This document shows, piece after piece, positions 6,345 to 51,560 of a DNA stretch of 64,000 bases. The position numbers and the translations under genes were made by a program. The DNA is taken from positions 64,001 to 128,000 of the IMG/VR virus record IMGVR_UViG_3300037010_002844; one strand, 5' to 3'. The DNA comes from a virus. Position 1 is the stretch's first letter. The number at the start of each line of letters is the position of its first letter. The notes under the pieces are model-generated. The model did no database searches. It worked only from the letters and a program-made list of their open reading frames with translations, and was not told where the DNA came from.

Positions 6345-9300
6345 ATGAAGGTCACCCTGGGCACATTGCGCGAGTCAATCCTAGAAAGCTACGTTGAGAT
6401 TCTCGTCGAAGGCCGCATAGAAGACGCCCGTGAACGGTACCCTGACATTTCCGACGAGGACTTCGATGACCTAGTCGAGAATCAGCCGCAAGGGTCCAAC
6501 AACAAGTACCTGATGTGGTGTGCCAAGCAGGTCGACGATGGCTTTTCAGTCAACGTCGTCGTCCAGAACATGCGATTGTTCGACGGCAACAAGCAGCGAC
6601 TCGAGAAGAAGGACATCAACCAGTATGAAGATCCCAGCGCCATCGAGACCGCTGTCCAGGCCTTGGGTGGCAAGTCGAAGAGCCAGGAGTCCAAGCAGGC
6701 CAAGGCTGATTCTGACGTGATCTACAATGATGATCACTGGTTGGTCATCCGTCCTCACACCATGGGAGCCTCCTGCAAGTACGGCATCGGAACCAAGTGG
6801 TGCATTGCAGCGACCACGAGCCACAACTACTTCTCGACGTATTCAACCAGCAACAACAAGTTCTACTTCGTCATTGACAAGACGCAGTTGCAGACCACAC
6901 CCCCGCCTCCGAGTTCCAAGTACGCCATCGTCATTCGTGACGAGGCGGGCCGCAATAATGAGGCCTACGATGCCTCTGACAAACGAGTCCCGGTATCGAC
7001 AGTTGCTAAACACGTGGGCGTCGAGTGGCCGGCAATCTGGTCAAAGATTGAGGCTCACGTCAAGAAGGTCCCACTGACCCGTGAGGTTGAGGACGAACAA
7101 CGCGCGGTTGAGGAGCATGTCAATGACCTGATGGCGGGCAAAGACGTGTCTTCGCAGGCGCTACAAAAAATCGCCAAGAGTGCCAAGATGACGTTGCGGG
7201 TGGTGCAGAAGGTCTATGATCTCGCGGCGAAGAAGGTCGAGACCGGAGAAGACAAGTACATGCTTTCATTCTTGATGTATGCGCTCAGCGACAACATCGG
7301 CAACTTGACGCCCGATGCGGCGATGTTCTTCATTCAGAAGATCGGCGATGGCGGCAACAGCTACTACATCAAGCGGGCCATCGAACATGCCAACCTGACA
7401 GAAGAGAACTTCACGCAGTTGGTGAAGAGCGGCAACGAGGCCGTCATCGCGGCCATCATGGAGAATCCACGCGCTCCTGACGCATTGAAGGACGAGATCG
7501 TTAAGGTCATTCCGAACTTCAAGAATGACATGGCAAAACACGATGCATGGTGGGCCTTGATCAAAAGCGGGCGCTACACGCTTGAGCAGTTCAAGGAAGC
7601 CGTGGAAAGCAGCTCTGCTTCACATTACCACGTCGTCGCAGGTCAGGTGTTGAGACACATTGACGAACTGAACTTGACGCCCGAGCAGCTCATGTTGATC
7701 CCCGTCACTGACGAATACGACCTGAAGAACATCATGAAGGCACCCAACCTGCCACCGGCTCACCTAGGTGCCTTGATCGTTAAGCTCCGTGACAAGTTGT
7801 CGACGCAGTTCTTGATCAAGTTGTTGAAGCAGTCGAACATCGACTCTGACACTGTCGAGTTGTTGTGGAAGTCGGTCACGCCCGACATCAGGACGGCGCT
7901 ATTGCAGAACCCGTCGATCGGAGCGTCAAATGCCAGCAAGTTCGCCCTCAGCAAGAATCACGCCTACCGCTTTGCGGTGGCCCACAATCCGGTCACGCCC
8001 AAGGAGGACCTAGCTGTCCTCGCAGGTGATGAGTCGACTTCTACGCGGGCCGCGGTGGCTGCTAACCCCAACACGCCCGTTAATGTTCTGAAACAGCTAT
8101 CCCGCGATGAGGCCGTCGCCATCCGCGCGGCTGCCGCGTCAAATGCCGCTGTCGGCAACGATGTCCTGCAGGCCTTGACCAAAGACAGCGACAACTTCGT
8201 CAGGAGGGTCGCTCGCAAGACTCTGAAGTCCCTAAAGGTCGCTGAGGCCTATGTCAAGGCTGCGATGGGCATGCGTAGGATCTTGTTGGAAGAGCTCAGC
8301 GACGAAAACGAGAACCAGGACATCATGAATCCCTCCTGGCGCGACATCTCGACAAAGTCTCTCAAGTCTGACGAGTTCATTGTCATCTTCTTGCTGCAGA
8401 ACAACGGCCACGCCACCCGCGAAGAAATCGAGTCAGCATGGTTTGACTGGATGGGTCGCCTGGTTCGACGCCACGATTTGTGGAAGAGCACTCAACACGG
8501 CAAGGAACCCGTGCGAGGCATCAATGCCAGCGGCTCAGCTTGGTACTGGGCACCGCCGGGTATCGACAAGGGCGCGCTGTTCCAGCTGACGCCCGCGGGC
8601 GCGGCTGCTGCCATGCATGCCCTGAACAAGGTTCGTGGCAGCGTTGAGCCAAGGCGCTCTGAGGTCGGCTCGGCCGGCGCACGCCCGGGCAGGACGTACT
8701 ACATCAGCAATGATGTCTCGGCTTTTGACATCACCGGCCGCGAAAATGACGAGATCGAAAGTGAAGAGATCGAGGTCAATCGTTACTCTTCCGAGCCCGT
8801 CATCCGCGGTGGCAAGTACACGAAGTTGTCACCGAATCGCAGCCGTGCGTCCAGGATGCGCACCAAGGGCGCGGTCTACTGGAAGTTCACGAGCCCGAAT
8901 GGCCGTGAGACGTACACCAAGAACCTACCTCAGGTTGCCTTGAAGCGCGGTGCCGAGGTCACATACGTCAAGGCTGTCCATGCTCCGGGTAGCGGTGGTC
9001 ACCCGTACAACATGGCGATGGTCAAGTATGGCGACAGGTACCTGTTGACCGCATTCCCGTTGATGACGACGGCCTCGGGCGCCCGTGAGGAAAATGCACC
9101 AGAAAACGTGGCGCCGCCGATTAAGAAGTCGCCGCCGTCGAAGGCAACAGCTGCCGCGCCCGCCGCAGCTGCAGCGATTGAGCCCACGGCAGCCAAGGGT
9201 CCGAAGACGACCTACAAAATCTACGGCCGATTCAAAGGTCACCCGGCCGCGACGCGATTGAAAGGTCAAGCCTACGTGGCCGGACAAGACACGCAGTTCT

Positions 9301-9404
9301 CGGCCGGTGAGCAGGCAGTCATTTCCAAGACGGACGACGGCAAGCTCAAGGTCAAGAAGGCTGACTCGGATCACAGCCAGATCTGGGAGCCGATTGACGG
9401 CTAA
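6345..9404 (+). CDS. Large (1019 aa) LRV/HEAT-like repeat protein with the N-terminal leader motif; candidate packaged virion protein.
   Basis: N-terminus is MKVTLGTLRESILESY. The central region has repeats of the leucine-rich-repeat-variant type (AVAHNPVTPKEDLAVLAGDESTSTRAAVAANPNTPVNVLKQLSRDEAVAIRAAAASN). There is an Ala/Pro-rich linker near the C-terminus. It is one of the few plus-strand genes. Confidence 0.7.
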   Translation: MKVTLGTLRESILESYVEILVEGRIEDARERYPDISDEDFDDLVENQPQGSNNKYLMWCAKQVDDGFSVNVVVQNMRLFDGNKQRLEKKDINQYEDPSAIETAVQALGGKSKSQESKQAKADSDVIYNDDHWLVIRPHTMGASCKYGIGTKWCIAATTSHNYFSTYSTSNNKFYFVIDKTQLQTTPPPPSSKYAIVIRDEAGRNNEAYDASDKRVPVSTVAKHVGVEWPAIWSKIEAHVKKVPLTREVEDEQRAVEEHVNDLMAGKDVSSQALQKIAKSAKMTLRVVQKVYDLAAKKVETGEDKYMLSFLMYALSDNIGNLTPDAAMFFIQKIGDGGNSYYIKRAIEHANLTEENFTQLVKSGNEAVIAAIMENPRAPDALKDEIVKVIPNFKNDMAKHDAWWALIKSGRYTLEQFKEAVESSSASHYHVVAGQVLRHIDELNLTPEQLMLIPVTDEYDLKNIMKAPNLPPAHLGALIVKLRDKLSTQFLIKLLKQSNIDSDTVELLWKSVTPDIRTALLQNPSIGASNASKFALSKNHAYRFAVAHNPVTPKEDLAVLAGDESTSTRAAVAANPNTPVNVLKQLSRDEAVAIRAAAASNAAVGNDVLQALTKDSDNFVRRVARKTLKSLKVAEAYVKAAMGMRRILLEELSDENENQDIMNPSWRDISTKSLKSDEFIVIFLLQNNGHATREEIESAWFDWMGRLVRRHDLWKSTQHGKEPVRGINASGSAWYWAPPGIDKGALFQLTPAGAAAAMHALNKVRGSVEPRRSEVGSAGARPGRTYYISNDVSAFDITGRENDEIESEEIEVNRYSSEPVIRGGKYTKLSPNRSRASRMRTKGAVYWKFTSPNGRETYTKNLPQVALKRGAEVTYVKAVHAPGSGGHPYNMAMVKYGDRYLLTAFPLMTTASGAREENAPENVAPPIKKSPPSKATAAAPAAAAAIEPTAAKGPKTTYKIYGRFKGHPAATRLKGQAYVAGQDTQFSAGEQAVISKTDDGKLKVKKADSDHSQIWEPIDG

Positions 9405-9739
9405 ACGTCGTCCTTGCGGTTGCCGATGCCCGGGGAGATGTTGCTAAATCTAGCACGTCGCTCGTGACCCTCGCGATCATAGTCACGAACTCGCTCGATG
9501 ATCCCGCGGAAAAATCCACTCCACTCATCAAGCGTGACTTCTTTCTTGAAGTCCTCAGCTAGCTGGACGGCATACGCCTCGATCTCTTCCTCCGAGGCTT
9601 CTGTCATGTCATTGCTGAGGGCCATGCGTAGCTTCCGCGCCAGCTTAACGCTGGGAGGAGGCAACATCCACTGGTTCTTTTCTTTATCCCAAGTTGGGAG
9701 AGAGACCTGTAGCGTTATCACGATGCCGCGTCGACTCAT
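9401..9739 (-). CDS. Hypothetical protein.
   Basis: Internal Met (MSRRGIVITLQ...) of ORF 9401..9874. The upstream part of the track ORF is Arg/Ser-rich and overlaps another acidic ORF (9684..9877). Confidence 0.35.
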   Translation of the reverse strand: MSRRGIVITLQVSLPTWDKEKNQWMLPPPSVKLARKLRMALSNDMTEASEEEIEAYAVQLAEDFKKEVTLDEWSGFFRGIIERVRDYDREGHERRARFSNISPGIGNRKDDV

Positions 9740-10067
9740 CTGCGATCCTTTCTTCCTCGAGGCACCTGTTGTCGCGCTCCGTCCTCTCCATCGTCTCTTC
9801 CCACTGTTGTTCAGCGGCTTCCCAAGCCTCGGCCCACTGTCGGAGTGCGTCCGCGTTGGGCACGCCCTCGTCATTCATAGCTTCAGGTCCTCCAAAGACG
9901 CAGAGATATGACTGTTGTGTGCCGTGGCCCCACAGTTGCACGGAGCGTAGCCCTCGTGATCGCATTCAGCTGGGCACGAGTCCGAGTGCCCGCGGTGGTT
10001 GCCAGCGAGACCTTGGCACGGACTATCTTCTCGATCAACTGTTCGTAGGTGTACATGGGTTTTATGT

Positions 10068-11198
10068 TTACGTGATTTCCCTCAACTTCCAGACCGTCGT
10101 CGACGCGCCAAAGTCGTCCCTCTTGACCTCGGCACAACACAGGATGAAGGGGTCAGGAAGCTCCTTGCCGCCCCAGACAGAAATCTTCGTGGCCTTGCCA
10201 GTGGGTCCAACCGCAAAGATTTGCACATATTCCTTGCCATTGCGGGTCTTCTTCTTGATGCCCGTCACCGGCTTGCCACCCTTCTTTGCAGCAACAGGGG
10301 CCGTGACAAACCAGACGACCGCCGTGTCACCGTGCTCCAGGTCGTCAATGCTATTGACGCCCTTCTTCTCCAAGGCAGCCAAGATTTCGATGTCAATCAT
10401 GGCGGTGACGTCCAAAGCACCGAAGACGTCGACCATATTTTGAGCACGTTCAGAAGACGACCAGTCCTCGATGTCAGCGTAGTCCCTGACCAACTGGTAG
10501 AAGTTCTTAAGGCCCTCGTGCGGGTCAGACTTCGGGTGTCGCTTGATCAACGCCCCGTGATCGATGTCGACCTCTTCGGTGACCTCGACGCCCTTGCGCT
10601 TCTTGGTCACGGTCTCCACGTGAGAACCGAAGAGGACCTCGTGCATGTGATGATAGTTGTTGAAGACCTTGCCTTCGCCCACGATGTCCATACTGCCGAA
10701 GGCACCGATCTTGACCAGGGCCTCCATCGCCTTCTTGTTGAACTTGCTGTGTTTCCACTCGAAGTTGTCATCCCACAGCAACTCCTCGATAGTGTTGTAG
10801 GGACGGTTGGCCATGATCTCTTCGACCGCCGAGTCGCCGACACCCTTGCAGGACGTCATCGACGGCATCAACTTCTTGCCGGGCAGCGCGGTCCACCCGA
10901 GCCCCGCCAGGTTGATGTCGATCGGGACGATCTGATAGCCCAAGGCCTTTACCTCGCTGAACGCCTTAGCACGTTGAGCAGGAGTGTGCGACATGCTTTC
11001 GAGATAGGCACACAGCCATTCCTCCTCGTGATATGTCATCAGCCAGGCGCACCAGAAGCTGTCAATGGCGTATGCCACTGCATGGCTGTTAGACGTCAGT
11101 ATCCCGTTAGCGAGATAGAACTGGTGATCCGGGTGATCGACTTCGAGGTCATAGGTCTGGTGTCGACCCACGGGTGTGATAGACTTGATGTTACTCAT
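10068..11198 (-). CDS. dnaE: DnaE (Pol III alpha) fragment 8 of 8: C-intein 7 plus the C-terminal extein.
   Basis: C-intein 7 at 11088-11198 is MSNIKSITPVGRHQTYDLEVDHPDHQFYLANGILTSN. The extein at 10071-11087 starts SHAVAYAIDSFWCAWLMTYHEEEW, which matches the DnaE KSHAAAYA helix onward. Confidence 0.85.
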   Translation of the reverse strand: MSNIKSITPVGRHQTYDLEVDHPDHQFYLANGILTSNSHAVAYAIDSFWCAWLMTYHEEEWLCAYLESMSHTPAQRAKAFSEVKALGYQIVPIDINLAGLGWTALPGKKLMPSMTSCKGVGDSAVEEIMANRPYNTIEELLWDDNFEWKHSKFNKKAMEALVKIGAFGSMDIVGEGKVFNNYHHMHEVLFGSHVETVTKKRKGVEVTEEVDIDHGALIKRHPKSDPHEGLKNFYQLVRDYADIEDWSSSERAQNMVDVFGALDVTAMIDIEILAALEKKGVNSIDDLEHGDTAVVWFVTAPVAAKKGGKPVTGIKKKTRNGKEYVQIFAVGPTGKATKISVWGGKELPDPFILCCAEVKRDDFGASTTVWKLREIT

Positions 11199-11419
11199 GT
11201 GAGCAGGTCCTTCAACAGGTCTTCGATCGCTCCTGCGTTCGGTTCATCAAGCATTGCTTTAGCATACTCTTCTTCAATGTACTCGTCAGTCGGCTGGAGT
11301 TCAACCTTCGTTTCGCTTTTGCGTCGGTAACGTGCCGCGGCCCGTAACAGTTCGATCGGACTCAGACCCATGCGTTGGGCAATGTCATTCAGTGCGATTT
11401 CAAACGGCGGTCTTTTCAT
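11195..11419 (-). CDS. Small hypothetical protein (possible HTH) inside the intein-7 gap.
   Basis: 74 aa, with IALNDIAQRMGLSPIELLRAAARY. Overlaps the neighbouring genes at both ends. Confidence 0.4.
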   Translation of the reverse strand: MKRPPFEIALNDIAQRMGLSPIELLRAAARYRRKSETKVELQPTDEYIEEEYAKAMLDEPNAGAIEDLLKDLLT

Positions 11420-12449
11420 ACGCTTTTCCTATCCGATGAACGCCAGGTCGAGGATCTTTCAGGATCTCAAAAAGCTTTTTCAAGCAATCAGGTTCGAAGC
11501 GACCGCCATCCTTGTATGAGAACTGATCGTAAGAAATTCGAATGAGTGTCCAATCATGTTTAGTGATGTAATCATCAAGCATTGCATCCATGCACTTCAC
11601 TCGTTCAAAATTATCCTCGCCTTTAATACGTGCATTAAAATGGATGATTCCATCAAATTCAACATAAATGTGTCTTGATCGATCGGCAATGTCAACTTGC
11701 TTTCTTTTAGATTTGTTTGGAAAAGCAACTGACTTGACGACCTGATTATGAACAAAATCATAACCTTCAACGTTTTTCAACAAATCAAACAACGCTAATT
11801 CCGGAATGCTATGCCAAATAGCATGTGCAGCTTTTGTGCACTTTTCGTAGAACTCATCGGGGTTCAACTCACGCCAACGGGCCAGGCGCTCAGCACGTGC
11901 CTTGAGTATCTCAGGCCGGGTTGACGTTAGTCTTGCAACGTCTGATGAACGTTTACGGGCTTCAGGTCGTCGATTAAGTTCTCCCATTAGTTCAGAGCGA
12001 CGTTTCCTCTCGCCCGGATTGCTCGTGATGGCCTCACTGACCGCACGGCCCATCTTTTCCTTGTAGGCAGTCAAATCATCACCGCGTGCCTTCGCTCGTT
12101 TGAGCCAGGCGAAATTCTGCCCACGATGCTTGAAACGCGCTGTCGAGACTTTCGATGTGATTGCGGCAGTCGGGTACGCTTTCAGGTATTCTTCTTTGCT
12201 CATACCATGCGTCCCCGACAAGTGCTTTGCCAGTGCCTTACCCGTGAAGCCACAGACTTGGCATGTGACACTCTCACTGTCACCGAGTATGAATCCTTGG
12301 CACCTAGCTTGGTGTTTTTCGTAGGCCTTCAGGTAGACGAAGAGCCTGCTACATCGGTCACAACGATGCTGAGGCCCCGTTCGGCAATCATCCACAGGGG
12401 CAACATCTCGTTTGTCTCCTTCGTCCTGAACTTGTGATCCCACGTGCAC
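11400..12449 (-). mobile_element. Free-standing homing-endonuclease gene in the intein-7 gap (MucR-like zinc finger plus a DUF559/Vsr-like PD-(D/E)XK domain).
   Basis: CQVCGFTGKALAKHLSGTHGMSKEEYLKAYP resembles the Ros/MucR finger. The C-terminal SIPELALFDLL...QVDIADRSRHIYVEFDGIIH resembles the DUF559/Vsr-like nuclease core. It lies between N-intein 7 and C-intein 7. Confidence 0.65.
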
Positions 12450-13030
12450 TTTACCTTCTCTCCGGTCACCAACTCCACTTCTACCAAGTCTAGCTCACCG
12501 TGGTCGTGTTTTGCAACAACAGGGACGAGGATGTTTTTACCTGAATTCTCATCACGAGACATGACCAGGTCGCCGGGTTCGATGTGTTGAAGCTGCTTTG
12601 TCTCTTTGAACGTGCCGTCTGAAAAAAAGGTATTTACTGGTTCCGAAAAGTACAAACTTTTATTGAAGCCGTAGCCCGCGAAGTACAGAATCTTGTCGTA
12701 GAGGTTGTTGGCCACCTTCTCGGTATAACCGTTGGCGATGCAACCCTTGACGAACCCGTCACGGGTCTCTTGGGCTGCCTTCTTTGCCGCCTCACCGCCC
12801 GAGATGCTGCGCTTCATGATTGCGCGACGGACCTCGTCACACTTGTCCTTCGGGAAGCCGGCAGCCTTCTCGGCGAGTTCCATCACCTGTTCCTGAAAAA
12901 TTATGCAGTTATGCACGAGAAGGCCATTTGCGAAGAAGTTGTTGTTCTTCTTGACCTGGATGTCGTACACAGGCTGTGCAGGAACACGCTTGATCGCACG
13001 GATCTTGACGGGAACTACGTCAGGCATCAC
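12329..13030 (-). CDS. dnaE: DnaE fragment 7: C-intein 6, extein, N-intein 7.
   Basis: C-intein 6 at 12908-13030 ends PVYDIQVKKNNNFFANGLLVHN. The extein at 12659-12907 is CIIFQEQVMELAE...DEVRRAIMKRS...ILYFAGYGFNK. N-intein 7 at 12332-12658 is SLYFSEPVNTFFSDG...CTWDHKF. Confidence 0.85.
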   Translation of the reverse strand: MMPDVVPVKIRAIKRVPAQPVYDIQVKKNNNFFANGLLVHNCIIFQEQVMELAEKAAGFPKDKCDEVRRAIMKRSISGGEAAKKAAQETRDGFVKGCIANGYTEKVANNLYDKILYFAGYGFNKSLYFSEPVNTFFSDGTFKETKQLQHIEPGDLVMSRDENSGKNILVPVVAKHDHGELDLVEVELVTGEKVKCTWDHKFRTKETNEMLPLWMIAERGLSIVVTDVAGSSST

Positions 13031-13344
13031 TTACGCTCCGTTTCACGATGAGTCTGACAAACAATGTGTAATGACATTGAGCGCGACAAAGCATCACTGC
13101 CTAGAACGACTCGGCAAGGGTTGAGATTTTCCCCCACATGACGCATCCATTCTTGCAAAGCGTTGATCAATCGTTGGGCTTCGTTGAAACCCTCATGCGA
13201 GGGTGGAAACTGACAGCAACCTACCAAATCTCTAGTCCCAGGATCATATGCAATGATTCGCAAATTCCCATGAACGTTCATCTCTAGCGTTAGAGATCCA
13301 TAAACATCGTCATCGATCTCGCTAGTGTAAAGATCTGCGCTCAT
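13027..13344 (-). CDS. Hypothetical protein (cargo ORF in the intein-6 gap).
   Basis: 105-aa ORF with an ATGA-type overlap to fragment 7. No motif recognised. Confidence 0.45.
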   Translation of the reverse strand: MSADLYTSEIDDDVYGSLTLEMNVHGNLRIIAYDPGTRDLVGCCQFPPSHEGFNEAQRLINALQEWMRHVGENLNPCRVVLGSDALSRSMSLHIVCQTHRETERK

Positions 13345-13345
13345 A

Positions 13346-13591
13346 TCATTTTTCTTTCATGTTCAATGATGATGCGCAGAGTTGGCACACTGGTCCATCA
13401 ACACTCAAAACACGTTGACCATGGTATTCGAGCTCCATATCATTTCCGACCTCTTCATAAGCTCGAAATGTGTCGAACCAGTCGGCATACGTGAGATCAT
13501 CACGCTTTCCAAATGCCGTATGTGACTTCATCGTGTTGATAAAGTTCTTGAACGACGTAAGCAACTCCTCTTCAAAATCATCAATCTTCAT
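13346..13591 (-). CDS. Hypothetical protein (cargo ORF in the intein-6 gap).
   Basis: 81-aa ORF starting MKIDDFEEELLTSF. No nuclease motif. Confidence 0.45.
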   Translation of the reverse strand: MKIDDFEEELLTSFKNFINTMKSHTAFGKRDDLTYADWFDTFRAYEEVGNDMELEYHGQRVLSVDGPVCQLCASSLNMKEK

Positions 13592-13662
13592 GTCTAAATT
13601 GTCCTCAATTTGAGGTGATAGTTCAAGGCATCAGACTCCCAGACGCGGTACACCGTGAAGCC

Positions 13663-13842
13663 TCAAGTTCTTGTGGCAAGCGTCCATAATTGATCAAGCC
13701 TAAATTGCTTCTTCATCGCAGGTGTTAGTTCATGCTTCGCTGGGTTACTGTGCCAATAGTCGCCGTCGTACTCGATGATGAGGTTGAGTGATGGCACGAC
13801 GAAGTAGCCTGGTTTCAGTACTTCATTCCCAAAATCTCGTCT
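13663..13842 (-). pseudogene. Remnant of a Vsr-like homing endonuclease.
   Basis: My translation of a start-less open stretch is RRDFGNEVLKPGYFVVPSLNLIIEYDGDYWHSNPAKHELTPAMKKQFRLDQLWTLATRT*. The IEYDGDYWHS core matches AIECNG(V/L)YWHSE of the two intact endonucleases at 15352 and 17837. Confidence 0.6.
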
Positions 13843-14414
13843 TCAGACGTCAGTTCACCTGCTTGCACCCAACCACGAGGCGTCATGACAAGGTGATCTT
13901 CAGTCAAAGACAAAGTTTCTCCACCCTCCAGCTCAACCTCGATGATGTCACGTACGCCGTTTGAGGCGACAGCGACAACTTCGTCCATCTCGACGGTCTT
14001 CGTCATTTCATTGTATGACGGAAGCTTAGTTCCCACCATTCCTTGTTCAACGATTTGTCTAATGGGAACCTCACCTTGCTCAGTAAGGATATGTGTGTCA
14101 CCCGTCAAACACGAGTATGTCTTCTTCAGGATGTCGTTGACGCGGTGATCGCCCCACTCCAACTCCTTGCCGTCATTCTTCGCCTCCAAGTACAGTCGAT
14201 CGACTTTGGCGGCCAAGGGACCCGGGCGATAGATGCTGGTCAGCGTCGCGATGTCGATGATGCTCTTGGGCTTGCCTTTGACAAAGAGTCGCTGAGCGCC
14301 CTGGCCCGTGCAATTGTGAACAACGACGTCGTTAGCGACGAAATTATGATGATTTCGCACCTCGATGTCGTAGACGTGGCGCTTACCCACGCTGCGTGAT
14401 GACACAAGCTTCAA
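13815..14414 (-). CDS. dnaE: DnaE fragment 6: C-intein 5, extein, N-intein 6.
   Basis: C-intein 5 at 14313-14414 is MKLVSSRSVGKRHVYDIEVRNHHNFVANDVVVHN. The extein at 14112-14312 is CTGQGAQ...LTSIYRPGPLAAK...ILKKTYS. N-intein 6 at 13818-14111 is CLTGDTHILTEQG...LTEDHLVMTPRGW. Confidence 0.85.
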   Translation of the reverse strand: MKLVSSRSVGKRHVYDIEVRNHHNFVANDVVVHNCTGQGAQRLFVKGKPKSIIDIATLTSIYRPGPLAAKVDRLYLEAKNDGKELEWGDHRVNDILKKTYSCLTGDTHILTEQGEVPIRQIVEQGMVGTKLPSYNEMTKTVEMDEVVAVASNGVRDIIEVELEGGETLSLTEDHLVMTPRGWVQAGELTSEDEILGMKY

Positions 14415-14772
14415 GCGTCGTCTCCTTCTTTTCTAGCAACTGTAGGTCATATCCACTGACAAGTGCACACTTGAGCGTCGGATGCAACGTTACGAATGCG
14501 TCAAACTTCTCCCTAGCATCATCACGCCACCAGCCCTTGACTTCCACGTACACCCGCTTAAAGAGCTCCAACGTCGGTCATTGACGATGGAAGATCATGT
14601 ACGCCTCTCTTGTGAGCTGGATCCTGATCTCCTCCTCGCTGAAGCCCTCGTCCATGCAATGACGCCAGTTGTCATACAGGTCGACGACGCCATTCTTTCC
14701 GTTCCCGTTGCCCGCTGAGTGCAGAAAGTACAAAGGGGCGCTACGATGAGCGGAGCGCGTCCGTACAATCAC
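14383..14772 (-). pseudogene. T7 endonuclease I-like homing endonuclease remnant with an in-frame TGA (intein-5 gap).
   Basis: ORFs 14578..14772 and 14383..14571 are in the same frame and are separated only by TGA 14578-14580. VYVEVKGWWRDDAREKFDAFVTLHPTL resembles T7 endonuclease I FVETKGLWESDDRKKHLLIREQHPEL as I recall it. The upstream PD motif is not preserved. Confidence 0.55.
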
Positions 14773-14856
14773 ATGTTGCGGAGTCGTGGGCCTGTTGCGT
14801 CTCTGTAAGGCGACATGGCCACGGTCGCGGCGAAACCTGCGACCAAAACGCCCGCC

Positions 14857-15333
14857 TCACGTCAATCCACGAGCTTCGTAACCACTGCTAGACCCAATCA
14901 ACTCGTCGTCTTCGGTTAGGTGCTGTGCCTCAACCCACCCGCGATTCTTCGTCAAGATGGGATGATCAGCGGTGCAGACAAGCTTCTTGCCGTCGTCGAA
15001 CACGAGCTCGATGCACTCCTTGGGTCCTTGGTCGTAAACGACGTCGACGACTGATGTGGTGAACTGCTGCTTGACTTCATCGAAGACCGTCACCTCGTCA
15101 CCGACATGGACGTCCTTGATCAACTTGTACGAGTCATCGCCCATCAGCACTGCCGTGTCCTGGTCGACGCACTGGAAGATGCCTGCCCACTTGCCTTTCT
15201 CGTAGACCTCGTAAGGTTTGGGATCGGTGAAATCAATGACGGCCGGGTGCATGTGCTGCTCGAACCAGGTCTTGATGTCATTGAATGATACCGCATTTGT
15301 ATGTGCGTCAACGTTAGCAACGACTTTTGCCAT
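14857..15333 (-). CDS. dnaE: DnaE fragment 5: degenerate C-intein stub, extein, N-intein 5.
   Basis: MAKVVANVDAHTN is a decayed block-G-like stub. The extein at 15172-15294 is AVSF...DPKPYEVYEKGKWAGIFQ. N-intein 5 at 14860-15171 is CVDQDTAVLMGDD...CTADHPILTKNRGWVEAQHLTEDDEL. Confidence 0.8.
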   Translation of the reverse strand: MAKVVANVDAHTNAVSFNDIKTWFEQHMHPAVIDFTDPKPYEVYEKGKWAGIFQCVDQDTAVLMGDDSYKLIKDVHVGDEVTVFDEVKQQFTTSVVDVVYDQGPKECIELVFDDGKKLVCTADHPILTKNRGWVEAQHLTEDDELIGSSSGYEARGLT

Positions 15334-15351
15334 GTCTTTGTAAAGGTACTT

Positions 15352-17151
15352 TCACAGGTCCATAACGTACACCGCGTTGGAGCAACCAAAGATCTTAAAA
15401 AGCCTGTGTTCCATCGCCATCTCTTCTTGTGATGCGATCCCCGGAATCGCCCTGACAGCAAATCTATCGATACGATTTTGTCCGTCCGTCCACCAAAACC
15501 TAGGCTGCGTCATGTGATCAAATCTAAAACCAGATAGTTCATACGCCCGGCCAGTGCCACCCAACCTCATGTCACGGTATGTGATCATTTTTTGGTAACC
15601 ATGCTCACGTGACCAATCCCTGGCAGCGTTGATCAACCGCGACATGCCTCCAACGACGATGGTATCGCGGGCCGTTGAAACCCGCGCCAATTCAATTGTC
15701 TTAGATCCCCACTTAGTCTGCTGGTGCGGTTTTCGCAATGTCAATGCACAAATAATGTTTCCAGCAATGTCCTCTAGCCAGAACGAATGCGACGAAGGAG
15801 TGTTTCCATCGAGGTGATTGTTCGCCATGAACTGAGCGGTGATGGCTGGACGACCGCTGCGAAGATGTAGCTTTCGTGCCATCACGCGAGTAGCAAGACC
15901 AAGCTTTACCCTGATCATGCTTTTGATGATGTTTTTCTTTACATCATGGTGCCATTCATCGTCGAAGATATGTAGCAACGACACACCACGCTCAAGAGCG
16001 CGAGTCGACTTGTCTTGGTGATACGATGGTGGAGTACCGGTCGCCTCACTGTGCCAATAGACACCGTTGCACTCGATGGCAATCCTTCCGTTACCTGACA
16101 CGATGTCCAGCTCATAAGGCGCGATTGACTGTCTGTCGTTGGCGATGGCGTTCGAATCGAGCTTGACGAAGAAATCGAACACCTCACGATGCCAGCGAGA
16201 GAAATTAGCCGGGTAGCACGTTGAACACACCTTTCCCTTGTAAAGGACGTTAAAGGGAACAATATCAGGTACGTTACAACTGACGCATGTCACATGCACC
16301 GGTGTTGAGTATCCAGCAAACTCAAATTTTTCGATGTTCCACCTCGACCGCAGTGCATCAACTCGCCGTTCGACCTCTTCGAGAGACAACCGAAAAGGAG
16401 AGTTAGTGCCGTTCTCGATAAGGCGTTTTCTAGTCTCGATGATCGAACGTTTGATATCTTCAGAATTAGCGTTCCGAGACCAATGATTCAAGCGAACGCC
16501 TTCGCCGATCCGTTCTGATCGCCGTTTGATCCTATCGTCAGTTTCTGACGTCTGACCGTGCTGCGTCCAGTGTTTTTCTACTTGCCATTTTTCAGTCAAT
16601 GCTCGAGAGATGTTATGCGCAGCTCTTGTGATAGATTCATTATTTTCTTTAGTTTGTCCTGTTCTCCAGTGCCCGTGTTTTTTGATGAAATCACGACAAC
16701 CTTGTGCGGCCCTTCGAACCGATTCAGACGTTGTTTCTGACAGCCCCTTGTTCCATGCAGGCAATGATTTTGATTTCCGGCTAAGCGCACCTCTTACTTG
16801 AGAGTTCTTCTTGCTACAAACTCCACAGAGACGTTCATATCCCGTTTGAAAGGTCATGAACTTGACCGGCCCTGAACACTGAACGCACGGTCCAGGGTGC
16901 TCTCGAAAAAGAAGGTACGCAGCCTCCGCATTGAGCCCGTGCTTTTTAAGGAGATGTGCGCGGAGCGAATTTAGGCTAGCTTTTCGCAATGGATCATTGC
17001 ACTGTGGGCACCTCGAAGGACACGATGTCATCGCCGGGCCCGAGCTCCCTCGCAAGGATGGTGCCCCTGTTGCTGGTGACGATTCGTTGGTCGCCGTAGA
17101 CGCCTCGTGTCGTTCCATCGTCGAGTTGGATCTCAAACCACCCTCTTTCAT
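15352..17151 (-). mobile_element. Free-standing homing-endonuclease gene (zinc finger, NUMOD3-like repeats, Vsr-like nuclease, conserved C-terminal domain) at junction 4.
   Basis: Contains CPQCNDPL...HLLKKH, WNKGLSETTSESV and TGQTKENNESI repeats, and YELDIVSGNGRIAIECNGVYWHSE. The C-terminus is YRDMRLGGTGRAYELSGFRF...FWWTD...IFGCSNAVYVMDL. It is a paralog of 17837..19570. The true start is probably an internal Met (17118 or 17031), because the track start overlaps fragment 4. Confidence 0.75.
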
Positions 17152-17851
17152 GTCGTTCCTTTTTGATGATGAGCTCGATGGCGCGCTCGATGAGCCGCAT
17201 CGTTTCTAGACCTAGGAGGTCGTACTTGATGAACTCTCCGATCTTCTCAAGGTGTTTATAATTTACGCCCTCGACCCAAGGTGACTGTGGCTCGCGGACG
17301 CCGGCCTTGCCTTTGGACGTCACCAAAGGCATCTTGTTGGGCAAATCGTCTGCAATCAGCACACCACCCGCGTGACGACCGAGACTACGATTCTGCTTGA
17401 AGAGGATCTTGATCGACTCGGCGACGACCGGGTACTTCTCAATGAAGCCGCGAAACGACGGGCTGACCGGCTGCTTACACTCTGGGCTACAGCCCTGGCA
17501 GATGGACTTCGACTCCGGGCCCTTAGGAGCCCTGCAGTGGAAGGCCATGGCCTCATCGTAGGTCAAGACGAACAGATTCTTGTCGTCGCCTTCCTTCATC
17601 GTCGCCTTACGGACCTCGTCCTCGACGGTCCGCGTGGCAGCGTTGGTCTCCTCGAATGGGATGCCGTAGAACTTGCCGATATCCTTTACAAGCGTTTTTA
17701 GTTTGAAACAGTTATAATTGCTGATGGGAACGACGTTTTCCCACCCAAAAAAGTTTCGAAGTTCATCAAGAACCTCATCTCGCCTGGCAAGATCGGTGTT
17801 GTGAACAACGACGCTCTTGTTGGACGCCAAAAATGAATGAACGACCATCAC
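16994..17851 (-). CDS. dnaE: DnaE fragment 4: very short C-intein 3, palm/fingers extein, degenerate N-intein remnant.
   Basis: Starts MVVHSFLASNKSVVVHN (17798-17848, ATG at 17848). The extein is TDLARRDEVLDELRNFFGWENVV...SLGRHAGGVLI...IKYDLLGLETMRLIERA. The tail at 16997-17140 is WFEIQLDDGTTRGVYGDQRIVTSNRGTILARELGPGDDIVSFEVPTVQ. Confidence 0.85.
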   Translation of the reverse strand: MMVVHSFLASNKSVVVHNTDLARRDEVLDELRNFFGWENVVPISNYNCFKLKTLVKDIGKFYGIPFEETNAATRTVEDEVRKATMKEGDDKNLFVLTYDEAMAFHCRAPKGPESKSICQGCSPECKQPVSPSFRGFIEKYPVVAESIKILFKQNRSLGRHAGGVLIADDLPNKMPLVTSKGKAGVREPQSPWVEGVNYKHLEKIGEFIKYDLLGLETMRLIERAIELIIKKERHERGWFEIQLDDGTTRGVYGDQRIVTSNRGTILARELGPGDDIVSFEVPTVQ

Positions 17852-19570
17852 ATGAATCCTAACTCAACTACAGTTGAATTTACATGCGCTCGTTGTGGTC
17901 GAAACCACGAAACGCTACGAGCATTGAAGATCCACGAGGCACGACACAGGCGAGAAGACGCCAGGCCTCCCAAACAGGTGTCAACTTACGCGTGTCCGTG
18001 GTGTGAGGCGTCATATGACAGCGGGCGTAAGTTGACATTGCACTGCACAAAAACGCACCAAAAATCACCCGTCGTTGTGTATGAAACAAGGTACCCAGGG
18101 TGCAGGAAGACGTGCATCGATTGTTGCGACTGGGTCAGGTTCATCGATCAAGAAAAAGGATACCCCGAACGGTGTCCACGTTGTAGCCGAAAACACGCAT
18201 ACGCGTCCAAGGGCACCTCGTCATGGAACAAAGGCCTGACGAAAGACAATGACGAACGCATGTCAGCCAGTGCTGCAAACATGCGAGCTCACTACAAGGA
18301 ACACGGTCACCACAACTCCGACAAGACAAAGGAAAACAACGAAAGCCTTAAACAAAAGGCGGCAAAAATCAGCGACAGCCTGCGGAGGTATTATGCAACG
18401 CACAGCGGCTGGTCACTTGGCCTGACAAAGGATACGTCTAGCATCATTGAATCTCGCAGTAAGAAGATCAGCGCTTCGTTGAAAGGACGATTCTTTAGCG
18501 ACGTAACGCTTGAAAAAATGCGCAAGGCAAAGTTGCTGACGCACGACGAGGTACAAAAACGCCTCAAAGAAAAGCAGCTTAAACTCATTGACGAATATGT
18601 CGATACTGTCACCAAAGCGCGCATCGAATGCACGATATGTTCAACAATATTTGAGCGTTGCGTTGGCGCAGTGTTCAACAACGAGGCCAAGTGTCCCACC
18701 TGCTTTCCGCCTTGGTCAGACAAAACGAGCAGGTGGCAACAGGACGTCTACGCATTTATCCAGACGCTGGCACCTGACGCAGTCCTTAGCGATCGTAAGA
18801 CGCTCGGCGGAATGGAGCTCGACATACTCATTCCATCGCGCATGTTTGCCATCGAGTGCAATGGCCTATACTGGCACAGCGAGGCCGCCAATAGATTTGA
18901 GCACGATCACGCGGAAAAGAAGAGATTGCTGTCCCTCAAAGCCGGCGTATCGCTTTTCACGTTATTTGAGGATGAGTGGCGCGACAAACGACCGATAATC
19001 GAAAGCATGTTGCGCCATCGCCTTGGGTTTTCTACCAAAGTCGATGCGCGTAAGTTGAAAGCAGAACGCTGCGAGCCCGAAGAAGTTCGAGAATTCATCA
19101 ATCAGTGCCACCTCGACGGTCACGTGAGGGCCCAATTTGCCGTGCGATTGGTAACCTCATCGGGCGAAATCGTAGGCGCCTGCAGCCTTAGGTGGGCACG
19201 AAATGGGGCAGACAGAACGACGATTGAGATCGCTCGCCTGTGCTTCAAGCTTGGCACACATGTACGAGGCGGGGTGTCAAAATTGCTATCAAAGGCAAAA
19301 GCTATAGCAAGAGAAAACAATGCAGCGAGGTTGATGTCTTACTCAGACAATCGCTTGGGAGGAAACGGTTATGCCACCTCAGGCATGAAGTTCAACGGTA
19401 CCACAGTCGCTCGCTTCTGGTGGACTGACTTCATGCATCGTTACGACAGGTTCAAGTACCGAGCCAACAAGAAGCAAGGTCTAACAGAAAAACAGGTAGC
19501 GGAGGCTGCCGGCGTTTATCGCATCTATGGCTGTAGCAACTCTCGCTACGTCTTAGACGTCACAGCGTGA
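17837..19570 (+). mobile_element. Homing-endonuclease gene on the opposite strand inside the intein-3 gap (C2H2-like finger, NUMOD3-like repeats, Vsr-like nuclease, conserved C-terminal domain).
   Basis: Contains CARCGRNHETLRALKIHEARH, then WNKGLTKDNDERM and SDKTKENNESL and GLTKDTSSIIESRSKKIS, then MELDILIPSRMFAIECNGLYWHSE. The C-terminus is YSDNRLGGNGYATSGMKF...FWWTD...IYGCSNSRYVLDV. Its ATG at 17837 overlaps, head to head, the ATG at 17848 of fragment 4. Confidence 0.8.
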
Positions 19571-19872
19571 CGCTAATGTCATCGTCAAACTTTGAGGACG
19601 CATTTTCTTTGAGCCAGAAGATGGCGTCAATTGTGCGCTCGTCGGCGTCGGCGTCATCGCACGACGTAGCCCCATAGTATGGGGGCCAAATCGTGCTCAA
19701 ACCCTTTAACGCGCAGTTTGACCTGACAATCTTGAAATTCAGGATTTTCTGCAGCTCTCGTCTGAGCTATTCTTTCCAGGCCAGACACTATCACATCATC
19801 TGCTCGGCAGAATCGCCGTTGTCTGTAAGCTGCACCGCATCAACGTTGCTCGGACACGGTCCCAACTCCAGC

Positions 19873-20610
19873 TCAAATTTCATAGTTGCGCTCGCTGTGG
19901 TCTGTTCTTCTCTTAGACGCGCACCAATCGCTGCAAAAATTGTCTCCTTCGCCACACGCAAGGAACGTGCCAGGAATGACGCCCATGCAATAACCGACGT
20001 CATGTGATGGATCACCTCCACTTAGAATGGACGTATTGAACGGTACCACGTGGAATCTGTGATCGTCTTCAACAGTCAGGTCGACGTATCTAGCGTTGGA
20101 AGAGCCCCAACCACCGTGCTCGATCGATACGACCTCAACGCTGCCGCATGATGCCATCAATTCATCTCCGACCTTAAGGTCGCGGCAGTACACGATGACG
20201 CCGTCAGCTCTGACAAATTTGTGACCGGGCACCACCAAAATGTGGCCCAACGTACCATCATTGGCCCTAACTCTGACCCAGACAGCGTCCTCGAATGGCC
20301 GCAAATTTCTAGCATAGGTCGCAGTTACTGCGTGTGGCATTCCATCGCCTCCCAGGACGACGTCGCCGACAATGATGTCAACAGCTCGCTTATGAGTGCC
20401 GTCTGTCATGACGACAAGATGGTCCTCGTGGACGCAGTCGATATCAGGAGCACCAGAGTTATGTGTCAGCACCCAATCGCTATCGTTGTTGGACACCCAA
20501 AACGTATGCTGGCCTTCGACCTCGATGTCGATGAGTTCTACACTTTCATCGACAACCTCGATAGCTTCAATTTTGGCCGTGCTTGCTGATGAGATGTTGG
20601 GTTCCTGCAT
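19873..20610 (-). CDS. dnaE: DnaE fragment 3: C-intein 2, 7-aa extein, long N-intein 3.
   Basis: C-intein 2 at 20458-20610 ends ELIDIEVEGQHTFWVSNNDSDWVLTHN. The extein SGAPDID is at 20437-20457. N-intein 3 runs down from 20436 as CVHEDHLVVMTDG...VVPGHKF...ARYVDLTVEDDHRF (to about 20053). About 60 unrelated codons follow. Confidence 0.8.
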   Translation of the reverse strand: MQEPNISSASTAKIEAIEVVDESVELIDIEVEGQHTFWVSNNDSDWVLTHNSGAPDIDCVHEDHLVVMTDGTHKRAVDIIVGDVVLGGDGMPHAVTATYARNLRPFEDAVWVRVRANDGTLGHILVVPGHKFVRADGVIVYCRDLKVGDELMASCGSVEVVSIEHGGWGSSNARYVDLTVEDDHRFHVVPFNTSILSGGDPSHDVGYCMGVIPGTFLACGEGDNFCSDWCASKRRTDHSERNYEI

Positions 20611-21532
20611 AGTCCCTGTGCTCTAGATTGGCAATCGTATGGTACAAACCTTGTCGACGAAGTTCACCATAGAAGTCATTCATGTACACGACGTCGATGC
20701 GCTGACCAGACGCCACAACGACTTCCCGTGAACGTGCGTTTGAGTTAAGCAACTTTGAGAAACGCGATTTGCCTTCTCGCACACCTTTCAACTCCACGTA
20801 TCGGTCCTCATCACTGAACCAAAAGTCTGGAGTGTAACACTTCTCTTTGCCATCGATGACAACATGGAAAGACCTATGTTCATAGAATGGCATCTTACCG
20901 AGGTGCAAGCAATATCTGTAGTAGTCGGCTTCGAACGAGCTCTTGAAGTACGGGCTGTTTAGGATGTCGGAACGAAAACACGAGCGTCCGTTCACATGTG
21001 AAGCAACCATATCACGTGACTGTGCCTCGCGGGTGCACCGTTTGGAACAGAACCGCGGCACGTAGCTCTTCTTGGTGACGATCGGTTCGCTACAAACTTC
21101 GCATACCAACGTGTGGCGGTCAAACCTCGATGCAGCGAAACATTTGGGTGAACAGAACCTGCGATTGACGTTCTTCGTTGAGAAAGTGCCTAGACACTGT
21201 ACACATGTCAGTGTACGGAGCTCATTCTTTGTCAGCGCTTTCGCAGTGTACTTGTGCCTGCACGCATTCGAACATAGTTTTCTGTTGTTGTGACACTTTG
21301 GAACGTAGAACTCATCGCCGTACTCGACGCACGTCTTCACAAGCCTCGAGGGCATGGGAGCGTGTGACATCAGCTTCCTGTGAGCGACGGCACACTCATC
21401 AGTGCAGTACGGGCGATGGAGCCTACTACCAGAACCCTTGCAGTTGGGCTCATAGTTGAACTGAAACATAATACCACAGTGTTTACACTGTTTCTCAATG
21501 ATGCTCATAGTGGTACGTGTACAGCTCGTCAC
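20567..21532 (-). mobile_element. Free-standing homing-endonuclease gene in the intein-2 gap (four CxxC...FCSxxC zinc modules plus a T7 endonuclease I-like PD-(D/E)XK domain).
   Basis: The repeats are CKHCG...RPYCTDEC, CVEYG...RKLCSNAC, CVQCL...RRFCSPKC and CEVCS...PRFCSKRC. The C-terminal KCYTPDFWFSDEDRYVELKGVREGKSRFSKL matches the T7 endo I YTPDF...FVETKG core as recalled. Confidence 0.7.
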
Positions 21533-21992
21533 TCGTCGACAGCTCAGATGTATACTTCTTCACAGGTTGTCCATCAGGACCCACTGTCAACCACACATGA
21601 TTTTCAGAACACGTGAACGTAGTACCATTCACCTTCACGCGGTACGTCTTCTCATGTTTTGTGGTCATGGTGAACGTAACTTTACGGTGTGAGCCATCCT
21701 GTGAGACAACGCTGTCACCGACTTTCACGTCTCGAAGCGCGGACGACGAACCATCTGACATCAATACCTTTGTGTCTGGCGACAGACACCTGTGAACGCT
21801 AAGGAATCGCGCGAAAGGCAGGTCCCAGAACAACGGGTCCAAGTCGGTGATGTATAGGACGTAGGCGACCAGAGAGCCACCGCCCGAATTGTGGACTGCA
21901 ATACCTTCCACGTTGTAAGTGTGGCTGTTTTCCACACACAGGTCTACGACCTCACCCTTATACGGTACGACAGTCTTACTTCTGAGCTTCAT
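21495..21992 (-). CDS. dnaE: DnaE fragment 2: C-intein 1, 33-aa extein, N-intein 2.
   Basis: C-intein 1 at 21888-21992 is [35 protein letters not shown]. The extein at 21789-21887 is [33 protein letters not shown], matching the DnaE GSAAGSLVAY..ITDIDP..FERFLNPER region. N-intein 2 at 21498-21788 is [13 protein letters not shown]...CSENHVW. Confidence 0.85.
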
Positions 21993-22076
21993 GATATGCG
22001 TTCGCTCTCTTCATGTAAGCCTTGAGATCCCTGTCTAATAGACATTTGACGAGGATCAGGTAAACTTAGTTGAGTT

Positions 22077-23762: not shown

Positions 23763-23820
23763 ATCGTCGGGGCACTCGCACCGAGCTTCCCTTGGCGTCC
23801 TCCTTTCCTTGCTGCGTCAT
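23728..23820 (-). other. dnaE: True 5' end of dnaE (PHP motif I), out of frame with the rest of fragment 1.
   Basis: ATG 23820-23818 (ATGA overlap with the upstream stop) gives MTQQGKEDAKGSSVRVPRRFVGLHNHTGFS, then TAA at 23730-23728. Removing one base in tcg-t-aat would read ...GFSNAPFDGLGYPDEH, the canonical PHP HxH...DG continuation. Confidence 0.7.
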
Positions 23821-24137
23821 TTACCTTCCCACCTTACCTTGTCACGGTACTGTAGACCCAATTGACGGTACTGGACACCGTCAATGACCACGATAGTCAC
23901 TTCAGGAAACTTGATTCGCATCAGTGCAAGCTGATAGCACGCCTTGTCAGACCACCTTCCCTTAATTTCGTAGTACACGCTTTCATCGTGAACGAAAATC
24001 TGGTGTGTACCAAGCCGGCCATGTCGGCGATCTGCGGCAACGTGGCCATACCAATGGGTATCAGCACGCGGAGCCACTTGGGCAGCTTGTTCCAGGTGGG
24101 CTTCAGCTGGGTGACGAGCTATGAAACAACGATGCAA
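23817..24137 (-). CDS. Small T7 endonuclease I-like protein, probably a degenerate homing-endonuclease remnant.
   Basis: THQIFVHDESVYYEIKGRWSDKACYQLALMRIKFPEVTIVVIDG parallels YTPDF...FVETKGLWESDDRKK...HPELDIRIVF. The PD aspartate position is not conserved. Confidence 0.45.
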   Translation of the reverse strand: MHRCFIARHPAEAHLEQAAQVAPRADTHWYGHVAADRRHGRLGTHQIFVHDESVYYEIKGRWSDKACYQLALMRIKFPEVTIVVIDGVQYRQLGLQYRDKVRWEGK

Positions 24138-24211
24138 CCAGCGGCAACCTCGGCAGCAATGTCTGCAAGAACCATGTCGTCATGGTAAACCGGAAGCGAT
24201 CAGTTTTACAT

Positions 24212-50600: not shown

Positions 50601-51560
50601 ATGCCTACCAAGATCGTCATACCGCCAGAGAACATCAATGAGATGCGTAATTTGTTCTGTTCTGGCGCCAGCATCCCAGAGCTCATGCTAAAGTACGGTC
50701 TCTCACGGAACAAGGTCACTGCTACCCTTCAAAACGCTCTGGGCGAGGAATACACGACATATGCTCAGAAGATCATCGCCGGTTGTGCTGTAAAATCTGC
50801 TGACAAACGGCGTGGGCGCAAACAAAACCGAACTCCGAAGTGGAACGCTAAAATCGCTGATGCAAATCGAGGAAAGAAACGATTAGAAGAGACAAAAGCT
50901 AAGATCAGCGAAGCATCACGCACACGCTTCGAGCGTGGCACCTGGTCGAAAGAAAAACACATTGAGGCTATGAAGAAGGCCGTACAAACCAAGCGTAAGA
51001 ACGGCTACTTTCAGTTTCATTCACAGCGTCATTCTGAGTAGACGAAGGAACACACACCGATGCGTGGTAAGAAAATGTCAGATGAGGCGTGGCAAAAGAT
51101 GCGTAAAGCAAAAACGCTTTTTTGAACTGGGTGGTGAGCCCTCGCACTTAGATCGCATCATTCCTGCACATGAATGTCAAAAACATAGTGAAAATACCAA
51201 GCGCATGTGTGCAAATGGCAAATTTTCATACGGCGACGGTTCTGTAATGCGTAGTAAGCTCGAAAAACGTATCTACGATCAAGCGCTCACCGTCTTTCCA
51301 GACGCTCAACACTCACGTTGGCTCACTGTCAATGACACCACGTACGTCTTCGACATCTTCATCCCATCGATCAAGACGTTCATCGAAGTCAATGGGAACT
51401 ATTGGCACCTTAACTCACGGATCTACGAGGCCACACACACCACGACGCATACCGTGATGTGATGGCTTCAGAGATCTGGGAACGAGACGCTGTAAAACGT
51501 CACGTCGCTGAATCTCAAGGCTATCGTGTCATCAATCTTCCACTGCAGCCTGACGTCCAT
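50601..51560 (+). pseudogene. Decayed free-standing homing endonuclease (NUMOD3 repeats plus a Vsr-like core).
   Basis: Frame 0 has NUMOD3-like GRKQNRTPKWNAKIADANRGKK and RLEETKAKISEASR, then an in-frame TAG at 51039-51041, then GKKMSDEAWQKMRKAK. A frame change at the T6 run 51118-51123 leads to SKLEKRIYDQ...VFDIFIPSIKTFIEVNGNYWHLN. A second frame change near the (CA)n at 51431-51450 leads to EIWERDAVKRHVAESQGYRVINL. Confidence 0.65.

Follow-up and report, generated by a model that had tools for sequence, protein, structure and literature searches.

In the fractured genes of phage DNA metabolism, a free-standing homing endonuclease, often of the Vsr-like kind, lies between the halves of a split intein (Dassa et al., 2009; PMC2677866), and a fractured locus that lacks the endonuclease, gp41-7, is already known (PMC2677866). 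Essential genes are also split by endonucleases without inteins, namely nrdA by mobE in phage Aeh1 and gene 43 in Aeromonas phages 25 and 44RR (PMC2988022, PMC3045599), and homing endonucleases co-convert the DNA that flanks them (PMC2790892, PMC2330249, PMC2988022, PMC10448857). The DNA analyzed here is a viral stretch of 64,000 nucleotides (positions 64,001 to 128,000 of IMG/VR record IMGVR_UViG_3300037010_002844; hereafter, the window), in which a phage-type dnaE gene (DNA polymerase III alpha; 10068-23762, minus strand) is broken into eight open reading frames (ORFs) by seven split inteins. The gap between the two halves of intein 6 contains the relic of a Vsr-like endonuclease and two small genes, ORF81 and ORF105, all on the minus strand. 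We consider it probable, though well short of certain, that this gap is an eroded mobile cassette and that both ORFs are passenger genes, unrelated to endonuclease or intein, from the pool of small accessory genes of phages.

The gap is sharply bounded. N-intein 6 (13818-14111, minus strand; 98 codons, CLTGD...EILGMKY) ends the dnaE fragment at 13815-14414 with a TGA at 13815-13817. C-intein 6 (12908-13030, minus strand; MMPDVVPVKIRAIKRVPAQPVYDIQVKKNNNFFANGLLVHN, followed by the +1 cysteine of the extein, CIIFQEQVM) opens the fragment at 12329-13030, whose start lies at 13030/13027 (MMPDVV...LLVHN/C). These positions agree with the original prediction. Both fragments, with the intein halves adjacent and on the same strand, matched the Pfam families Intein_splicing and DNA_pol3_finger; N-intein 6 also matched Hint, and its block B (TEDH) was read from the sequence. 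All splicing residues of intein 6 were present in the translations: CLTGD... (Cys1), LTEDHLV (block B, T-x-x-H) and LLVHN/CIIFQ (H-N and +1 Cys). The C-intein 6 segment was 89-96% identical to its counterpart in three relatives, L006, L014 and L016 (L-numbers denote IMG/VR viral contigs).

Between the intein halves, the reading frames are chained. The relic (13594-13815) directly follows the N-intein stop in a different frame, the ATG of ORF81 (13346-13591, 81 aa) lies 2-3 nt past the TAG of the relic, and the ATG of ORF105 (13027-13344, 105 aa) lies 1 nt past the TGA of ORF81. The stop codon of ORF105 (TGA, 13027-13029) in turn overlaps the ATG/GTG start of the C-intein fragment, so that the small ORFs are indeed packed tightly against the downstream dnaE fragment, as had been proposed. 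A GGAG at 13036-13039 precedes the start of that fragment by 8 nt. Promoter-like matches in the dnaE locus occurred at the frequency expected from shuffled sequence, with none on the minus strand of the gap; terminator-like matches numbered 18 against 11.9 ± 3.1 expected, again with none on that strand. An Rfam scan of 9000-24500 returned zero RNA families, and a search for repeats in the gap found none. As neither a conspicuous promoter nor a conspicuous terminator was seen there, the small genes are probably co-transcribed with the dnaE fragments, and the 1-nt spacing and the overlap of the ORF105 stop with the next start suggest that their translation may be coupled.

The same chain of TAG/ATG, TGA/ATG and overlapping TGA/ATG, with no internal promoter that stands out, would also be expected if the ORFs were translational-coupling spacers that feed ribosomes to the C-intein/dnaE fragment and whose protein products are irrelevant. 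We regard this as very unlikely. The downstream fragment has its own GGAG, the length of the gap varies from 787 to 2071 nt among the alleles of relatives, the amino acid sequences themselves are under strong purifying selection, and the same proteins are conserved outside dnaE.

The relic is what is left of a Vsr-like (EDxHD-type) homing endonuclease. It comprises 73 codons (13597-13815) and a terminal TAG (13594-13596), and reads KPGYFVVPSLNLIIEYDGDYWHS...LATRT, then an in-frame TGA (13663-13665), then GFTVYRVWESDALNYHLKLRTI. It aligns with 59% identity to the intact 265-aa endonuclease of L006 (residues 197-265), matches PHROG endonuclease families 559 (6e-7) and 3339 (1.5e-5), and keeps the catalytic block (E-x-DG-x-x-WH ... 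G-x-x-V-x-R-x-WE) as IIEYDGDYWHS ... GFTVYRVWESD. Its identification as a Vsr-like relic was thus correct, but the length of about 60 codons first assigned to it was too short. The relic corresponds to the C-terminus of the enzyme, down to its natural stop (...LKLRTI and stop), and lacks about 196 N-terminal codons, including the C2H2 zinc fingers present in the L006 enzyme. No complete endonuclease ORF lies between the halves of intein 6 in the window; the gene is intact in L006 and L023-L025. The proportion of nonsynonymous differences (pN; Nei-Gojobori method throughout) was 0.25 between the relic and intact copies and 0.14 between two intact copies, and the raised value is consistent with relaxed constraint. 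The gap-6 endonuclease of the window is dead. The intact enzyme (4783-5580 in L006; also L023-L025) uses zinc fingers of the eukaryotic C2H2 type as its DNA-binding part; in L006 these matched Pfam zf-C2H2 at 1e-9, and the top PDB sequence matches of the enzyme were human zinc-finger proteins.

That ORF81 and ORF105 are themselves pieces of the decayed endonuclease can be set aside almost entirely, since adjacency to the relic is the sole link between them. Homologs of both ORFs occur together with the intact enzyme, which is decisive: in L006-L009, the intact endonuclease, a 137-aa homolog of ORF81, a 135-aa homolog of ORF105 and a 159-aa ORF (ORF159) stand in a row, and in L006, L023-L025 and L031 homologs of the small genes sit beside the endonuclease rather than in place of it. 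Neither ORF resembled the four endonucleases in the window by tblastn, and hhalign against the intact 265-aa enzyme gave a probability of 0.7-0.8%. Because the relic extends to the natural C-terminus of the enzyme, ORFs downstream of it could not be N-terminal pieces. The GC content at third codon positions was 0.46 for ORF81, 0.43 for ORF105 and 0.46 for HE349, another endonuclease of the locus, compared with 0.63-0.77 for the dnaE fragments; the composition of both ORFs is foreign to dnaE.

The small genes do not belong to any annotated family. Scans against Pfam, PHROGs, NCBIfam and PADLOC gave no significant family for ORF81, ORF105, the unsplit 142-aa form of the N-terminal module described below, ORF159, a further small ORF of the locus (ORF74) or distant family members. 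A Foldseek search of the AlphaFold2 model of ORF105 against PDB and BFVD returned nothing at E <= 0.001, a PDB sequence-profile search with the ORF105-family alignment returned nothing, and an AlphaFold2 model of the unsplit 142-aa form was too poor for a fold search (pLDDT 52.9). Matches to 50,697 GenBank phage records were zero both for tblastn of ORF81 and ORF105 and for megablast of the 15-kb locus. The original prediction, which saw no nuclease or DNA-binding motif in either ORF, is supported in that neither ORF belongs to such a family in the four databases, and profile and structure searches of the kind it called for assigned no known domain or fold to either. Among the outcomes that it named as speaking against passenger genes were descent from the decayed endonuclease and lack of conservation; the intact enzyme coexists with the ORFs, and their families are conserved.

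ORF81 is an open, acidic gene (pI 4.6) with 15 homologous clusters in metagenomes, to which a profile search added P0038 and P0039. Its conserved part is an acidic helical module (residues 1-62, 13406-13591; pI 4.5), termed the N-module, followed by a conserved GPVCQLCASS and a short private end (residues 63-81). Alignments and the profile search gave the invariants of the module as F6, E7, L10, S13, F14, ..., D-L-x-Y-A-D-W-F-D-x-F-R, ..., E-E-V-G, ..., H-G-x-R-x-L, and ORF81 fits them. At 81 aa, it is shorter than all other members of its family (122-151 aa). Elsewhere, the N-module is joined to a linker and a CxxC...CxxC zinc ribbon (nine clusters, 122-142 aa), to an 'HWC' module (four clusters, 137 aa) that doubles as the N-terminus of the gene downstream of the ORF105 homolog in L001, or to an unrelated helical domain (P0038 and P0039, 147-151 aa).

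ORF105 is likewise open and has 22 homologous clusters in metagenomes. Its core (residues 1-74, 13123-13344; MSADLYTSEIDDD...ALQEWMRHVGE) is followed by a linker (residues 75-99, NPCRVVLGSDALSRSMS), beyond which the end is private. The family, which we call MSADLY, is defined by the motif M-S-x-D-L-Y-x-S-E-I-D and by the invariant residues G16, L18, E21, L28, I30, P47, G52, I60, L63, E65 and W66 in a core of about 72 aa, all of which are found in ORF105. A profile search of 1.84 billion representative proteins recovered 72 clusters, 26 of them at E <= 1e-10. Because nearly all matches were 62-100 aa long and were covered for the most part, the core is an autonomous small protein. AlphaFold2 predicted three strands and a long helix for the core of ORF105, with a pLDDT of 83-94 over residues 11-70, and a disordered tail. 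ORF105 lacks the cysteine-rich CxxC...CxxC tail of its nearest relatives in the gap and has the same architecture and length as P0009 (102 aa), a free-standing member of the family. Most of the family lies outside dnaE. Free-standing MSADLY genes were found within clusters of small genes on other large phage contigs (L001-L005 and L026-L030) and, in the syntenic relative L017-L020, about 5 kb upstream of dnaE between Dam-type methyltransferase and cellulase-family genes.

In comparisons with the distant relatives L006, L014 and L016, the core of ORF81 had a pN of 0.07-0.13, with a saturated proportion of synonymous differences of 0.87-0.97, and the core of ORF105 had a pN of 0.16-0.22, with a dN/dS of about 0.2 where dS was measurable. 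Judged from these alignments, ORF81 and ORF105 belong to real families under purifying selection.

Seven alleles of gap 6 were compared among the relatives, and homologs of both ORFs are conserved in the same gap, the synteny for which the original prediction had suggested a check. The allele of the window, shared by L010-L013, has the 73-codon relic, an N-module gene of 81 aa and the MSADLY core, and ORF159 is absent. In L006-L009, the endonuclease and ORF159 are intact, the N-module gene encodes 137 aa, and the MSADLY core is present with a zinc-ribbon tail. The allele of L031/L032 has a 72-aa endonuclease relic with a different internal deletion and an N-module gene of 137 aa, together with the MSADLY core and the C-terminal half only of ORF159; the last two were read from L031 alone, as L032 ends in the N-module gene. 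The MSADLY core is absent from the other four alleles, and in these the N-module is part of a fused gene: L014/L015 (136 aa; endonuclease split into 119 + 98 aa; ORF159 intact), L016 (142 aa; endonuclease absent; ORF159 frameshifted), L023/L025 (142 aa; endonuclease and ORF159 intact) and L024 (138 aa; endonuclease and ORF159 intact). The N-module gene is the sole element present and open in all seven alleles, and inactivation or loss of the endonuclease took place on at least four separate occasions. It follows that the cargo survives without the endonuclease and is under selection of its own.

These alleles also bear on whether the N-module gene serves the Vsr-like endonuclease, for instance as a regulator, inhibitor or helper, and entered with it as one cassette instead of as a later, unrelated passenger. 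In L006, L014, L023-L025 and the window, the start of the gene lies 2-3 nt beyond the endonuclease stop, and in L021, an N-module gene 60-65% identical to the gap form overlaps the end of a distant, 360-aa Vsr-like endonuclease that has only the catalytic motif in common with the 265-aa enzyme. A dedicated partner would be expected to decay alongside its endonuclease, however, and the N-module gene has remained an open, conserved frame where only a relic of the endonuclease is left (the window and L031) or nothing at all (L016), and it occurs without an adjoining endonuclease in L022 and L033. We consider such a partnership unlikely.

The passenger genes also occur as a pair outside dnaE, on an unrelated contig. 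In L022 and L033, the N-module gene P0039 lies in a small-gene cluster beside a polynucleotide-kinase phosphatase (PNKP) gene, with no adjoining endonuclease. A 77-aa MSADLY gene follows P0039 in L022 with an ATGA overlap, and L033 ends inside P0039. On gene order, ORF81 and ORF105 most likely form a linked two-gene module.

The fused genes suggest how the pair may have changed within the gap. In the window and L006, the MSADLY core leads into a linker, NPCRVVL.SDALSRSM; the same linker stands directly after the N-module in the fused 136-142-aa forms, and the free-standing P0009 bears it natively (CRVDLKSDALSHEM; CRVDLKSDALS). A GAAAA at the end of ORF81 and another before the linker would yield an in-frame fusion if the DNA between them were deleted. 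We propose that the two-gene form may be ancestral in the gap and that the fused forms may be deletion derivatives; P0034 (122 aa), which has no linker, weighs against this order. The converse, that an unsplit gene of 136-142 aa was ancestral and was later split by insertion of MSADLY, was dropped in view of the native linker of P0009, the adjacency of the two genes in L022 and the GAAAA microhomology. Similarities of the intein group the window with L016, so recombination has mixed segments and scrambled the phylogeny, and modules have been shuffled as well, with the HWC tail, the zinc ribbon and the CRVVL linker swapping partners.

Several points weigh against reading the two ORFs of the window as retained passenger genes. 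The gap of the window is the most reduced allele seen, with the zinc-ribbon tail and ORF159 lost; the selection estimates leave the function of its shortened copies unproven; expression of both ORFs is a prediction from sequence; the argument from the gene pair has just two independent contexts behind it; and, given L021, the cargo may have arrived after the endonuclease or along with it. Cargo elsewhere in the locus has already decayed: a pseudogene in gap 3 (19572-19877, minus strand) has three in-frame stops. It belongs to another family of gap cargo and shows 40% identity with an intact ORF of 105 aa from gap 7 of L016 (8635-8952), an ORF that also occurs in L014 (2-298).

Such losses raise the question of whether ORF81 and ORF105 are non-functional leftovers in the window, open only because the truncating deletions are recent. 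The shortness of ORF81, the missing tail of ORF105, the loss of ORF159, the dead endonuclease next door and the cargo pseudogene all fit this explanation. The four contigs L010-L013, from four samples, are identical to the window over 2086 nt, which points to a stable region but leaves no population variation from which current constraint could be gauged. Even so, leftovers seem improbable to us: neither conserved core is truncated or broken by a stop or frameshift, ORF105 matches free-standing P0009 in architecture and length, the spacing of starts and stops and the Shine-Dalgarno sequence are preserved, and both families are under strong purifying selection. Thus, the ORFs, originally described as two intact small genes, are open with complete cores but are only partly intact, ORF81 being the shortest of its family and ORF105 having lost its tail in the most reduced allele.

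The layout of the gap, the homology and synteny of its genes, the selection on the cargo and its independence of the endonuclease are established, and a history of the passenger cassette may be sketched. A fuller cassette would have consisted, in order, of a Vsr-like homing endonuclease, an N-module gene, an MSADLY gene and ORF159. In the lineage of the window, the first 196 or so codons of the endonuclease would have been deleted and a stop acquired in the remainder, and ORF159 and the zinc-ribbon tail would have been deleted, with the two small genes staying open. Homing copies DNA that adjoins the endonuclease gene, and the cargo may have arrived and spread by such co-conversion. The location could be explained if the gap is the sole dispensable DNA inside an essential, highly conserved gene, with the conserved intein and extein flanks serving as recombination arms. 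The likeliest role of the cargo would be that of small protein-binding accessory or host-takeover factors. The suggestion in the original prediction that split-intein gaps are landing pads that later acquire unrelated passengers holds for the cargo, which is foreign, unrelated and variable and occurs in other gaps too, but not for its timing: in L021, an ORF81-type gene comes immediately after a Vsr-like endonuclease of a very different kind, so that cargo and endonuclease may have entered together as a single cassette.

A more speculative possibility, which we think doubtful, is that the gap is a protected, self-propagating slot. Imprecise loss of the cargo would destroy DnaE, homing would copy the cargo into naive genomes, and the pair would act as an addiction-like or anti-defense module that outlasts the endonuclease. 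ORF81 and ORF105 are two small, adjacent and probably coupled genes, as in toxin-antitoxin systems, with a 1-nt gap in the window and an ATGA overlap in L022. Neither matched a type II toxin-antitoxin family in Pfam, NCBIfam or PADLOC, and no significant fold match was found.

The source is an uncultured phage with a large genome: a protein identical to ORF81 occurs on contigs of the 0.2-1 Mb class, up to 309 kb long, and the related IMG/VR contigs measure 85-150 kb. The surrounding locus is heavily fragmented. The dnaE fragments of the window lie at 22077-23762, 21495-21992, 19873-20610, 16994-17851, 14857-15333, 13815-14414, 12329-13030 and 10068-11198 on the minus strand, and the N-terminal fragment of DnaE shares only about 25% identity with the DnaE of any phage in GenBank. 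Relatives have fewer breaks (three fragments in L006, an ORF of at least 733 aa in L018), and the intein load in the window is unusually high for one gene. Intein 7 (approximately 12329-12660, minus strand, and downstream at 11198) appears to be cysteine-free, with a serine start (GYGFNK/SLYFSEP) and a serine at +1 (LTSN/SHAVAY).

Small genes were also found in other gaps. ORF74 (11195-11419, minus strand), a small acidic ORF in gap 7 between HE349 and the last dnaE fragment, is a conserved passenger, with a homolog at the same position in L016 (61 aa, 32% identity) and an 89-aa ORF at this position in L025 whose N-terminal stretch is similar, as read from the translation. Gap 7 of L016 contains five small ORFs, one of which has a free-standing homolog in L001, and gap 1 of L006 contains one ORF of 70 aa.

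Endonucleases are present in various states elsewhere in the window. In the intein-1 gap of 85 nt (21973-22047, minus strand), about 25 codons are left of an endonuclease; this relic shares 68% identity with the C-terminus of the 341-aa enzyme that occupies the gap in L006 (2333-3358). The intein-5 gap (14383-14571, minus strand) contains just a 62-aa endonuclease remnant with a weak match to PHROG 945, which overlaps the start of the next dnaE fragment. The C-terminal part of a 245-aa dnaE/intein ORF (19873-20217, minus strand) shares 33% identity over 106 aa with the C-terminal end of the gap-7 endonuclease of L016; it seems that a remnant of an endonuclease has been joined in frame to an N-intein. 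Two paralogous Vsr-like endonucleases of 577 and 599 aa (17837-19570, plus strand, and 15352-17151, minus strand; 32% identity) have a C-terminal region with weak GNAT/Mom-like matches, and one of them, inside a gap, is encoded on the opposite strand from dnaE; L014 has the GNAT/Mom-like part as an ORF of its own, 194 aa long. Far from dnaE, at about 51250-51430 (plus strand), a tblastn match of the relic and of residues 298-347 of the 577-aa enzyme to the Vsr-like catalytic block probably marks another endonuclease gene of the same family.

With the gap of intein 6, the life cycle of intein/endonuclease elements gains a layer of cargo, in which the gap also collects, shuffles and retains unrelated small genes. 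The seven alleles provide a natural series for the study of element decay, and two uncharacterized families of small phage proteins, one of them widespread, are flagged. Annotation pipelines and searches for split inteins should not take every ORF in a gap to be an endonuclease.

The window shares with the fractured genes described previously (PMC2677866) the adjacent intein halves on the same strand, dnaE as the host gene and a Vsr-like endonuclease in the gap. Those genes contain an endonuclease or nothing in the gap, whereas here two or three conserved non-endonuclease genes are present as well, and this cargo varies between alleles and remains where the endonuclease has been lost. As with the free-standing endonucleases of T4-like phages (SegB, MobE and others; PMC2330249, PMC2790892, PMC2988022; exchange boundaries in PMC10448857), the genes seem promoterless, would use host-gene transcripts, have overlapping stops and starts and would be inherited together with their neighbors. 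Unlike SegB and MobE, the cassette here interrupts an essential gene, with intein halves on either side, and its endonuclease is dead, and co-conversion is inferred. The arrangement recalls nrdA of Aeh1 and gene 43 of phages 25 and 44RR in that an essential replication gene is in separate ORFs with foreign DNA between them; the fragments of those genes reassemble non-covalently, whereas here intein halves are present and the foreign DNA includes conserved small genes. Finally, the cargo resembles 'moron'-type ORFan accessory genes in being 70-140 aa long, acidic and unannotated, with shuffled modules and varying neighbors, but it resides inside a fractured dnaE and not in an intergenic variable region.

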